64,000 bases of DNA from a virus. The notes beneath the pieces were generated by a model. The model saw only the letters and a list, made by a program, of their open reading frames with translations. It was not told the DNA's origin and did no database searches. The DNA is taken from positions 36,921 to 100,920 of the IMG/VR virus record IMGVR_UViG_3300045988_051734, one strand, 5' to 3'. Shown here piece after piece: positions 21,044 through 23,680 of the stretch (positions are counted from its first letter, which is position 1; each line of letters opens with the position of its first letter). The position numbers were made by a program, and so were the translations under genes.

Positions 21044-22297
21044 GTGAGCTTAAAATGTATTTTGCAAGGTCAAGATTCGAAGAACTTGGTTACTAAGGTT
21101 GAGTTGAATGAGCATATAGCGGATAAGAACAATCCTCATGAAGTAACTGCTGAGCAAGTTGGTGCAATGCATGATTATGGTTTGATTCATCCAGAAAATT
21201 TGCAAACTTGGGCAAGTGCGCAAGAACTTAGTGGAACATTTATGGTAGATCCATCAACTCTACTTGGTGTCCCATATGCTTCTCCATGGCTTGGAATTGT
21301 TACTATAATTAAAAAAGATATAAATAATGCTTATGGATTATATATTTTTAATTACCATGATAATTATTGTTGTATGAGCAATGCTGGAAAATGGACAGAG
21401 CCGTGGGTAAAATTAACTCCTAATAAATATCCATCTAACCCTAATTTATTAGATAATTGGTATTTTGGTAATCCGGCTAATCAGAGAGGACTTAAATTAT
21501 ATACAGATATAGGATATACAATAGATAGATGGAAACTTGATATTAATCCAGGAGAAGGAATTCGCGTTAATGATGGTTATATTACATTAAATACTTCTGG
21601 TATTTATTTTGGTCAGTATTTTGATAATTTATAGAACTTTAAAGGTAAAACTTTTACCGGGACAATTCTTTGTACTGATGGAAATTTATATTCAGGTACT
21701 TTTATTTATAATGCTATTATAAATCAAGGATAGACGTTTTTCCCATCTGTAAATGGAAGTCCTGGAATGTACATTCAATAGTTAAGTGATACTTTAGCAC
21801 AAGTAGAAATAAATACTTTAACAGATAATGTATCAATTATAGCCGTCAAACTTGAATTAGGCGACACGCAGACCCTTGCTCATCAAGACTCTTCTGGTAA
21901 CTGGATTCTTAATGAAATCCCGGATTTCGGGGATCAGTTGAGGAGATGTATGTACTATGCAGAAAAAATAGAAGATGGAAATACGCCTGTTATTACGAAT
22001 GCTACATTTATTCCAGCTGGTGCTACGAGCGCAACATTTGTTCTGCCATACGAAAGAAAACGTACATATCCGTCAATCCGCTTTAACGCTGTGAGTAACT
22101 ATCGAGTTATTGTCCGCTCCATGTCTGGAAACACAAGTGCTTTCGGTATATCAAACATATCGATTCTTGACGTTGGCACAACTAAAGCGTCCGTGCTTGT
22201 AACTTTTAGTAGTGCTACATCACAAGATTGGTATGGCTATTTACAGAGGTCTGATAATACAACTGGCGGATACGCTTTTATTTCCGCCGACCTTTAA
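21044..22297 (+). CDS. Tail-fibre-like protein, 417 codons, 3 in-frame TAG.
   Basis: Track ORFs 21044-21634 and 21938-22297 share a frame. TAGs at 21632, 21731 and 21779 are in that frame. N-terminal NPHEVTAEQVGA motif. RBS AAAGGAG. Terminates TAA. Confidence 0.5.
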
Positions 22298-22311
22298 GGA
22301 GGTGACACACC

Positions 22312-23003
22312 ATGGAAAATCTAAACCTTAAATCAAAAGTCTATGTCTTAATAGACTCTAATAATCATATTGCTCGCATCGAAGGTCAATATTCTCTTCC
22401 TCTCGATCTAACTGATTGGGTACTTATTGACGAAGGATATGGCGATAAGTATAATCTTGCGTAGACTCACTATTTTGATAAACCTCTCATTACGCAAGAT
22501 GGTATCTATCAATATAAACTTATTGGTACTACTCCAATCGAAAGATCTGAGAAAGAAATTGCCACAGAGCGAGAAACAAAAAACTTTACCAAAAATCAAT
22601 AGGACAAGCTAGTAGCTCTATCTACCGTTTGTAATCAAGCTATTATAAACGGTATGGACGTTGAGACAACCGAAGGCACAGAGCATTTTAGCCTCGAAGA
22701 GACCGATCAAATTAACCTAACGACTGCTGTATCCGCTATCGAACAAGGAGCCAAGGGATATCCCTACCACGCGGATAAGAAGTTATGTCGTATGTTTACA
22801 GCATAGGAAATCAAGAGTATTGCGGAAAGCGCGACCGCGCATAAATTATATAATATCACTCTTTGCAATCACCTCTTAATGCTAGTAAGACGAGCAACTA
22901 CAACCGCGGAATTAGATGCAATTACTTATTCTGCGGACTGCCTTCCTATTGATCTCGCGGAGAACATGAAGAAGATTCTAGTCGCGTCTGGAGTAACTAA
23001 ATA
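22312..23003 (+). CDS. Hypothetical protein, 230 codons, 3 TAG; possible fibre-associated or assembly protein.
   Basis: RBS AAGGAGGTGACACACCATG. Frame 1 is continuous to the TAA at 23001-23003. Confidence 0.4.
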
Positions 23004-23014
23004 ATTTTACCAAA

Positions 23015-23051
23015 AAATTTGGCAAAGTTGTTAAATCAGCTTTGCCAAATT
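23015..23051. promoter_or_regulatory. Inverted repeat containing the TTTGGCAAAG motif (operator, terminator or recombination-site candidate).
   Basis: aaaaaatttggcaaag-ttgttaaatcag-ctttgccaaatttt. Related copies occur at about 20903 and, as a tandem pair, at 24160-24190. Confidence 0.4.
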
Positions 23052-23076
23052 TTCATTATATATTGAGGTGATAAAG

Positions 23077-23680
23077 GTGTTATATGGATATGCAAGAGTT
23101 TCTTCACGAGATCAGAATCTAGATCGCTAGATTATTGCATTAACCGAAGCTGGCGTAGATAAAGATAATATCTACGTCGATAAACAATCAGGTAAGGACT
23201 TTAATCGTCCAGCTTACTAGGATTTAGTGAGTGTAGTTCAGCCAAATGATATGATTATTATTAAAAGTATTGATAGACTAGGCCGCAACTATTCAGAGAT
23301 TCTAGAACAATGGGGATTAATTACCAAGACTAAGAAAGTAGATATTAAAGTATTAGATATGCCATTACTAGACACGTCGTATTGTAAAGACGTCATGGGC
23401 ACATTTATCTCTGATCTTGTCTTATAGGTATTATCCTTTTAGGCTGAACAAGAGAGAACTTATATTAAACAAAGACAGGCTGAAGGAATCGCGGCCGCCA
23501 AGTCCAATGGTGTCTAGTTTGGTAGACCAAGGAAACCTCTTCCCTCGAATTTCGAGGAACTATATCAGCGTTTCCGCAAGAATGAACCGATTACTAGACT
23601 CGCAAAGGAATGTCCAGAAATCTCAGAATCTACATTAAGGCTCCGCTTGTAGGAGAGATTTGATTTGGACAAAAAGAGAT
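23077..23680 (+). CDS. Small serine recombinase (resolvase/invertase family), 201 codons, 6 in-frame TAG, GTG start.
   Basis: Starts [15 protein letters not shown]-[TAG]-IIAL with the catalytic Ser. Contains SIDRLGRN. The C-terminal GRPRK...HTH region is present. The TAG aligns with the Q of the gamma-delta/Hin motif LDIQ(V/R)xAL. Track ORF 23227-23427 is the internal in-frame fragment. Confidence 0.75.

Follow-up and report, generated by a model that had tools for sequence, protein, structure and literature searches.

A small serine recombinase of 201 aa encoded by an uncultured gut phage is probably a DNA invertase that acts on a 158-bp intergenic segment (the switch) between two receptor-binding operons. 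The recombinase gene and the switch were found in a 64,000-nt stretch (the window) of IMG/VR virus record IMGVR_UViG_3300045988_051734, positions 36,921–100,920 of that record; coordinates below are those of the window. The switch (20855–21012) is ~2 kb upstream of the recombinase gene, between a leftward operon containing a diversity-generating retroelement (DGR) and a rightward operon containing a hypervariable receptor-binding protein (RBP) gene. A preliminary description of this DNA had suggested an inversion switch linked to receptor-binding genes, and had named a single orientation without paired sites as the result that would speak against it. Paired sites exist and both orientations were found in assembled contigs, but the DNA that inverts is the intergenic segment and not a fibre segment.

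Crossover sites and inversions of the switch

The left crossover site, CCGAGAAAAAGT-AC-ACTTTTTTGTGG (20841–20866, core AC at 20853–20854), is a 26-bp imperfect palindrome around a 2-bp core that is not itself palindromic. The right site, GCCCAGTTAAGT-GT-ACTTTTTTGAAG (21001–21026, core GT at 21013–21014), is inverted relative to it. Both resemble hix and gix, the sites of Hin and Gin, in having 12-bp half-sites around a 2-bp core and in being inverted, and cleavage would be expected at the AC/GT core. The two sites contain the arms (20846–20858 and 21009–21021) of a 13-nt perfect inverted repeat, which was found nowhere else in the window and was the only perfect inverted repeat of that kind. 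The core sequences, AAAGTACAC-TTTT on the left and GTGTACTTTT on the right, were invariant across lineages though the surrounding DNA had diverged.

Metagenome contigs were searched for the flipped left junction predicted for the window lineage, and two carrying it (L052 and L053) were found; none was detected in the viral contigs searched. The flanks of L052 were collinear with the window (94.7% identity over 18983–20858 and 96.2% over 21009–21166), and window positions 20846–21021 mapped to its minus strand with 98.3% identity. The breakpoints were inside both sites, the overlaps of the alignments being the 13-nt repeats themselves. L053, a 147-kb contig, began inside the flipped switch and had the same flipped left junction as L052.

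Inversion was also seen in a second lineage. The internal ~146 bp of the L026 switch was the reverse complement of that of the window (local alignment 119 reversed versus 22 forward), and the flanking genes were collinear. L026 and L027, from different samples, encoded an identical recombinase; a 175-bp stretch comprising the segment and the 12-nt repeats was 100% identical between them but inverted, and its flanks were 99.6–99.97% identical. Outside the switch they differed at 26 positions in 16.6 kb, 22 of which were in the variable region (VR) of the DGR, indicating, together with the inversion, that flipping and DGR mutagenesis were the two fast processes in these genomes. There is very little doubt that the switch segment inverts in nature.

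Three contigs ended in the switch or at most 60 nt away from it: L001 (at its start, 96 kb), L076 (at its end, 146 kb) and L053 (at its start). Contig ends at this place are the expected outcome if both orientations are present in a sample.

The recombinase and its association with the crossover sites

With TAG read as sense, the recombinase open reading frame (ORF) spans 23068–23682 (+), and the likely start is GTG at 23077, preceded by GAGGTG, giving 201 codons (23077–23682). The predicted protein matched Pfam Resolvase PF00239 (1.3e-28, residues 6–149) and PHROG 125 “DNA invertase” (1e-49). It contained YARVSSRDQ, which conforms to the catalytic motif of small serine recombinases (Y-x-R-V-S-x-x-x-Q), and residues Y3, G4, Y5, A6, R7, V8, S9, D12, Q13, D66, R67, G69 and R70 were invariant among 21 recombinase homologues. 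Among solved structures the best match was Sin (2r0q, 1e-32), aligned over residues 2–179, followed by the gamma-delta/Tn3 resolvases (1e-19 to 1e-21) and Gin (1e-14). The length of 201 aa fitted the small-serine class of ~180–210 aa, whose members have a short C-terminal helix-turn-helix (HTH) domain, and the alignment with full-length Sin ran to residue 179. No Pfam HTH model reached threshold for this protein; a homologue on bacterial contig L180 gave weak HTH_23/HTH_32 matches. The score against the Mpi master-invertase model (NCBIfam NF009949) was 45.7 bits versus a cut-off of 272, indicating that the enzyme was not a member of the Mpi family.

Six in-frame TAG codons were located at positions 18, 48, 117, 122, 147 and 192 of the recombinase, four of which aligned with Gln in most of the non-recoded homologues (20/20, 15/20, 20/20 and 17/20); from these alignments, TAG in this gene is predicted to be read as Gln. 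The preliminary description was therefore right about a 201-codon serine recombinase with six TAG codons, and also about its place after two upstream genes, here identified as a fibre-like gene and a DUF4376 gene. The position of the recombinase gene was unchanged in all relatives. Searches of GenBank phages gave no recombinase above 60% protein identity and no DNA match. Close relatives of the enzyme within the same phage family included both recoded genes (six TAG codons in the window and in L031) and non-recoded genes (no TAG in L026 and L028–L030). The recombinases of L074 and L075 read YACVSS, in which a catalytic Arg is replaced by Cys.

The switch and the recombinase co-occurred in every lineage, at identities from 72% to 96%, and in L075 the switch and the gene were 135 nt apart. 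A search of bacterial genomes with the bare site pattern, AAAGTACAC-N150-180-GTGTACTTTT, gave matches of which 80 were checked. In 15 of the 80, mostly from Clostridia and Negativicutes, a recombinase 52–64% identical to that of the phage was encoded within ~25–200 bp of the site pair, with segments of 150–190 bp (L163, L164, L166, L169, L171, L179, L180, L196, L198, L200, L211, L219, L226, L228 and L230). Isolates such as Fumia xinanensis and Succiniclasticum ruminis were among them. At these two isolate loci the neighbouring genes were not of phage type, being sugar-nucleotide enzymes and a glycosidase in Fumia and transposase-like genes in Succiniclasticum; the Fumia xinanensis segment held an extended −10 box, TGTTATAAT. 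These chromosomal segments of Clostridia and Negativicutes probably represent an uncharacterised family of invertons and invertases. That this recombinase clade and the crossover sequence travel together is the main argument for the phage enzyme as an invertase, and by this association the phage recombinase probably carries out the inversion.

Two further matches (L183 and L218) were phage-like contigs containing the switch with its central hairpin motif. L183 (68 kb) was binned in a Clostridia metagenome-assembled genome and L218 (148 kb) in one of Eubacterium sp.; this binning is the sole hint of a host, a weak one, and it points to Clostridia.

Putative regulatory signals, flanking operons and genome context

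A promoter-like sequence, TTAACT-18-GATAAT, was found in the switch by a consensus scan (20981–21010, −). It reads leftward in the window, its −35 element overlaps the inner half of the right site, and in the flipped L052 it points rightward; the −10-like nATAAT was kept in four of five lineages. A one-way terminator-like hairpin (20890–20928, −) has a GGGAAAA/TTTTCCC stem followed by AATTTTTTATTA on the minus strand. It has a T-run on one side only and was scored as a terminator in L052, and in L076 and L028 it folded with −21 to −22 kcal/mol (z about −4.9). Differences in its stem between lineages were compensatory, and the outer TTGGGAAAA/TTTTCCCAA was invariant. With five lineages aligned in one orientation, a conserved block, GTATCTTAC, was also seen in the switch. 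A candidate outward “split” promoter (20992–21019, +) consists of TTGACC in the switch, a 16-nt spacer and TACTTT inside the right site. The TTGACC box (TGGACC or TTGCCC in two lineages) was at a fixed distance of 15–16 nt from the site in five lineages with varying spacer sequences, and the same outward-facing TACTTT occurred in both crossover sites.

Between the left site and the leftward start codon (TTG 20790) there are 50 nt, and between the right site and the rightward one (GTG 21044) 17 nt. These gaps leave no room for a promoter, so each operon must have its promoter in the switch or across it. Since the only promoter-like elements are in the switch, together with a one-way terminator, unobstructed transcription should go to one operon or the other according to the orientation of the switch. 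Two ways of reading these signals can be put forward. The TTGACC promoter may fire outward into whichever operon it faces, with the terminator shielding the other, so that the RBP operon would be on in the window state; this would be a back-to-back design like that of the Fumia locus. Alternatively, the inward promoter with its leader and terminator may be an attenuated or antiterminated late promoter that exits the far end, and the DGR operon would then be on in the window state. By either reading, the two operons swap their input when the segment inverts. Promoter and terminator functions, like the assignment of an orientation to an operon, are predictions from sequence motifs; on balance we consider it somewhat more likely than not that inversion toggles the expression of the two receptor-binding operons.

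The rightward operon begins with a fibre-like, hypervariable receptor-binding gene (21044–22297, +; 417 aa, three TAG) having weak matches to PHROGs tail-fibre N-terminal motifs. It is followed by a gene for a DUF4376 protein, a presumed fibre-associated helper (22312–23004, +; 230 aa, three TAG; PF14301, 1.9e-08; PHROG 1348 “tail fiber protein”, 1.4e-13). After the recombinase gene come a holin-like gene (23732–24115, +; PHROG 13712 “holin”, 1.7e-31) and a terminator closing the unit (24122–24146, +). The leftward operon begins with the DGR target gene (19018–20790, −; Pfam Big_3, 1.4e-12, and C-terminal DUF6273, 7.9e-08), whose probable start, TTG 20790, comes after GAAGGAGG, and which contains the VR (19032–19137, −). 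An Avd-like gene (18432–18926, −; so labeled from size and position alone, without a family match), the template repeat (TR, 18294–18399, −) and a reverse transcriptase gene (16772–18043, −; RVT_1, 5.2e-15, YMDD) follow. The 106-nt TR/VR repeat was 85% identical, and 15 of 15 internal mismatches were at TR adenines, as in a DGR (window 16772–20856, −). The operon continues with g16107-16772 (16107–16772, −) and a CmpB-type membrane protein gene (15677–16126, −; 3.4e-12), and ends at a bidirectional terminator (15632–15673). Sequence searches of PDB gave no relatives of the RBP or of the DGR target. A relationship of g16107 and g22312 as paralogous helpers was not supported (BLASTP E = 2.7; DUF4376 E = 0.13 for g16107).

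The window was collinear with 25 IMG/VR relatives whose recombinases were 92–96% identical. Window positions 21073–22628, which take in the bulk of the fibre-like gene and the 5′ portion of the DUF4376 gene, were unaligned, and at least nine unrelated cassette types were found in this slot among 22 relatives, with flanks 82–86% identical. No minus-strand match, and hence no inverted copy, was detected among the cassettes. The boundaries of the variable region differed between relatives, suggesting ordinary recombination in conserved flanks rather than site-specific exchange. In L031 the slot held a beta-helix tailspike and XkdX; in L022 it held a plus-strand sequence ~69% similar to the C-terminal region of the DGR target (window 19080–19625) in the opposite orientation. 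L025 was without the RBP and DUF4376 genes and the 5′ two-thirds of the recombinase gene (junction 21009/23422, the left end being 4–6 nt from the right core), and L074 and L075 lacked the RBP and DUF4376 genes. These lineages without an RBP cassette kept the switch, in window-like orientation. L019 lacked 24231–27188 and L001 lacked 24651–26468. The deletions in L019, L001 and L025 were rejected as footprints of the recombinase, their junctions having 3–5 nt of microhomology (GTCAA, GCAAT, TTA) away from the cores.

A 37-bp inverted repeat (23015–23051) between the DUF4376 and recombinase genes, noted in the preliminary description, was confirmed in an extended form (23014–23053, +) with 17 pairs, a 6-nt loop, an A-run before it and a T-run after it; AATTTGGCAAAG occurred in it at 23016–23027 (+) and 23040–23051 (−) with zero mismatches. 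It did not behave as a crossover site: it was present in a single copy without a partner, no rearrangement ended there, and it folded like a terminator (−22 kcal/mol, z −6.8), which puts it in one class with the bidirectional terminator hairpins at 15632, 24122 and 27173. The palindrome was nearly invariant among relatives, in which a common G-to-A at 23039 perfects the stem, and it stayed with the recombinase gene in L075, where both upstream genes are deleted. From its form we read it as a terminator or attenuator ahead of the recombinase gene, with a possible second role as a protein-binding site.

The related half-motif that had been noted near 20903 was also present, as AAATTGGGAAAA at 20897–20908, and proved to be part of the hairpin stem in the switch. 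A degenerate half-site, AWWTTGGSAAAR, a pattern derived post hoc from these very sites, had five copies in the 64 kb, all within 20897–24184 (0.27 expected). In more distant lineages CCAAAA/TTTTGG half-sites were kept in the region in differing arrangements. The palindromes at 20897–20932 and 23016–23051 were rejected as a recombining pair around the fibre genes: their centres are unrelated, so that no shared crossover core is possible, and the former is the hairpin within the switch. TTGGSAAA was likewise rejected as a general late-promoter box, being confined to 20.9–24.2 kb. Downstream of the holin terminator, two tandem direct half-site copies (24161–24184) were found in AAATTGGCAAAA and ATTTTGGCAAAA at 24157–24194. 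A promoter-like TTGGCA-18-TAAAAT overlaps the two copies, and after them come a small hairpin and a conserved leader, CATATATAAATGAAAGG; in L026, L028 and L031, related A/T-rich palindromes were at this position. The tandem copies are a candidate operator, promoter or accessory recombinase site.

Reading TAG as sense restored long ORFs in the window. CAA, CAG and TAG numbered 115, 46 and 73 in the plus-strand structural and lysis module (1–27 kb) versus 81, 110 and 1 in the minus-strand replication module, and no tRNA gene, hence no suppressor tRNA gene, was found in the 64 kb despite the heavy use of TAG in late genes. By reading of their translations, the minus-strand genes appear to encode a DnaE-like polymerase, helicases, a primase, a ligase and topoisomerase II subunits, and PHROGs matches identified homing endonucleases, a dUTPase and a phosphoesterase. 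No integrase, repressor or partition gene was apparent among the genes of this module that were scanned or read. The small integrase role suggested earlier for the recombinase is thus unlikely, because of its six late-type TAG codons and because lysogeny genes were lacking among the window genes scanned or read. Within the otherwise TAG-free early module, a GIY-YIG homing-endonuclease-like gene (49562–50473, −) had 13 TAG, an HNH endonuclease gene (38107–38874, −) four, and a small ORF (57242–57586, −) five; late-type, recoded codon usage seems to be shared by selfish endonucleases. A Firmicutes host would fit the strong Shine-Dalgarno sequences seen throughout the window.

Proposed mechanism, rival explanations and known systems

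In the mechanism we propose, two recombinase dimers would bind the 26-bp sites, cut at the asymmetric AC/GT core and invert the intervening DNA. One operon would then be transcribed freely and the other would lie behind the terminator, giving a heritable toggle between receptor-binding modules. Both operons are late and they are divergently transcribed, the order of the rightward one being fibre/RBP gene, DUF4376 gene, terminator-like hairpin, recombinase gene and holin gene. Because its gene follows a hairpin and carries six TAG codons, production of the enzyme would be low and would have to wait until TAG is decoded as Gln, late in infection. Switching would thus be gated to just before packaging; flipped genomes would be packaged, and the new state would be expressed in the next host. 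A wider picture, which we offer tentatively and hold at somewhat below even chances, is that of a virulent-type, TAG-recoded gut phage of Clostridia with three layers of variation, namely the inverton toggle, an operon rewritten by the DGR and a cassette slot of at least nine types, with the invertase gated to late infection. If the switch promoter feeds the recombinase gene when flipped, a bias to the common orientation would arise and would explain the unequal numbers of the two orientations given below.

Several points weigh against an invertase that toggles two receptor-binding operons. Among 40 assemblies (unique assembled contigs, oriented by the recombinase gene), 37 were window-like and 3 were flipped. 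The 13-nt repeat alone was not significant, since simulated 64-kb sequences had a mean of 0.62 such pairs, with at least one in 39 of 100; it is the observed inversions and the conservation, rather than the repeat, that carry the case. The recombinase sequence was nearer to resolvases (Sin) than to classical invertases. A host invertase of the same family could flip these sites, catalysis by the phage enzyme being argued from association, and receptor binding by the two flanking proteins is judged from domains, hypervariability and position. The switch hairpin of the window itself was weak (−13.9 kcal/mol, z −1.6), the promoter calls were weak consensus matches (9/12), and the promoter-like site and the hairpin have the same direction, which fits an attenuated leader or a small RNA equally well.

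Other explanations were weighed. One is that the phage recombinase inverts the segment but that the switch mainly gates the DGR, turning retroelement mutagenesis on or off, or controls a leader or small RNA encoded within it, and hardly affects the rightward operon. The promoter-like site and the hairpin, being in series, would predict an RNA of ~80–85 nt that includes the conserved block GTAAGATAC. No alternative promoter region is available to the leftward operon, and L025 and L074/L075 keep the switch in window-like orientation without an RBP gene. The rightward operon, with its 17 nt, is equally without another promoter region; the constant spacing of the TTGACC box from the site suggests a promoter directed outward, into that operon; and the chromosomal relatives of the switch resemble ordinary promoter invertons feeding an adjacent gene. 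We regard this explanation as unlikely. Slightly less likely again is a Sin/beta-type resolvase whose site would be 23003–23053 (three half-sites), serving multimer resolution or autoregulation, while a host invertase flips the 158 bp. Sin is the best solved relative (1e-32), res sites are typically just upstream of resolvase genes (PMC2428073), the half-sites cluster around the gene, the tandem direct pair at 24161–24184 recalls Sin site II, the palindrome travels with the gene in L075, and host genomes encode relatives that recognize the same inversion sites. Yet these elements are spread 1.1 kb apart rather than in an 86-bp res, and their arrangement varies, L028 having a tail-to-tail palindrome without the third copy. 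The hairpin has the form of the other terminators of this phage, no partition or plasmid-maintenance genes were found among the window genes checked, and the six late-type TAG codons speak against a maintenance role. Above all, the closest relatives of the enzyme adjoin inversion sites identical to those of the phage, which makes invertase the obvious assignment.

Inversion of 21044–23003, or part of it, in the manner of Gin, Cin and Hin, through the palindrome at 23015–23051 and a partner near 20903, with exchange of fibre C-termini, had been raised by the preliminary description and is very improbable. The recombinase gene is just downstream of fibre-like genes, as are gin and cin, its PHROG label is “DNA invertase”, and the related half-motif at 20897–20908 is real. 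However, as had already been noted, no oppositely oriented alternative fibre C-termini were found, whether in ORFs, repeats or relatives. Every relative was collinear over 21044–23003, with no minus-strand cassette match, the 20897 motif is a hairpin stem inside the real invertible segment, and of the two palindromes, with their unrelated centres, that at 23014–23053 is terminator-like. Least probable of all is that the flipped copies are assembly errors, or accidental inversions between chance repeats without a programmed function, even though one 13-nt repeat with this spacing would be expected to arise by chance in AT-rich DNA of 64 kb, flipped assemblies were few (3 of 40), and L052 had a low coverage of 3.8x (contig title). 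The same event was seen in two independent lineages with breakpoints inside the same conserved repeat, the sites were invariant across lineages with diverged surroundings, and the same site pair was beside homologous recombinases in unrelated bacterial loci. Moreover, the repeats of 12–13 nt are shorter than the k-mer named in the L026 and L027 contig titles (k=141), and usual assembly k-mers are also longer than this, so an assembly artefact is unlikely. An invertase acting on the intergenic switch is the explanation we prefer, and its consequences are considered below.

The known cases of programmed phage inversion, those of Mu, P1 and p15B, shuffle the coding segments of fibre genes. Other viral invertons were still only “putative” in a 2026 methods paper (PMC13501310). 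In the literature searched, no account came up of a promoter inverton lying between the receptor-binding operons of a phage, or of a DGR that is governed by an invertible switch or arranged head-to-head with a cassette-type RBP operon, which is not proof of absence. The switch described here is an intergenic inverton, probably of the promoter type, documented in both states in uncultured gut phages, between DGR-diversified and cassette-type receptor-binding genes. If the regulatory reading is true, a lytic phage would hedge between two adsorption devices with protein sequence unchanged, a candidate natural on/off control for a DGR would be at hand, and stop-codon recoding would be linked to the timing of a DNA rearrangement.

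Like the H segment of Salmonella with Hin, the phage system has a small serine recombinase and inverted ~26-bp sites with a non-palindromic 2-bp core; inversion would redirect transcription, and the outcome would be a heritable, reversible alternation of a surface-recognition structure. Unlike the H segment, the phage segment measures only 158 bp, with the recombinase gene outside it at a distance of 2 kb, and it is situated between divergent operons, so that it would be a two-way toggle and not an on/off switch. By sequence, Sin is closer to the phage enzyme than is Gin, the solved invertase used for comparison, and no Fis/enhancer element like that of Hin was identified from the phage sequence. 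To our knowledge, Clostridia, the likely hosts, lack Fis. With Gin/G of Mu, Cin/C of P1 and Min of p15B the phage shares a small serine recombinase encoded beside tail-fibre genes and would share, as the outcome, alternative receptor specificity. Those systems invert coding DNA and swap fibre C-termini and chaperones, whereas here only an intergenic regulatory segment is inverted and the alternatives are whole operons on opposite strands, one of them a DGR.

Sin of S. aureus plasmids, the closest solved relative in sequence, and beta of pSM19035 are, like the phage enzyme, Firmicutes-type small serine recombinases. Sin resolves directly repeated 86-bp res sites, each consisting of site I, an HU site and site II (PMC2428073); the phage rearrangement is instead an inversion, its two sites being single and 26 bp long, and a compact res was not detected. 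The DGR resembles those of phages of the BPP-1 Mtd type, being complete with a reverse transcriptase, an Avd-like gene, TR/VR mismatches at adenines only and a C-terminal variable domain. In layout, a short intergenic segment of 150–190 bp flanked by inverted repeats near a serine recombinase gene, the switch resembles the polysaccharide promoters controlled by Mpi in Bacteroides and the Clostridia loci described above. With the latter (L163, L171, L180, L198, L228 and others) it also has the core site AAAGTACAC...GTGTACTTTT in common, and their recombinases are 52–64% identical to that of the phage. The bacterial invertons control a single neighbouring gene, unlike the phage copy, which is between two receptor-binding operons and 2 kb from its recombinase gene. 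The pair of recombinase and site (AAAGTACAC core) is thus common to the phage and to chromosomal switches of Clostridia and Negativicutes, and could be used for finding further invertons.

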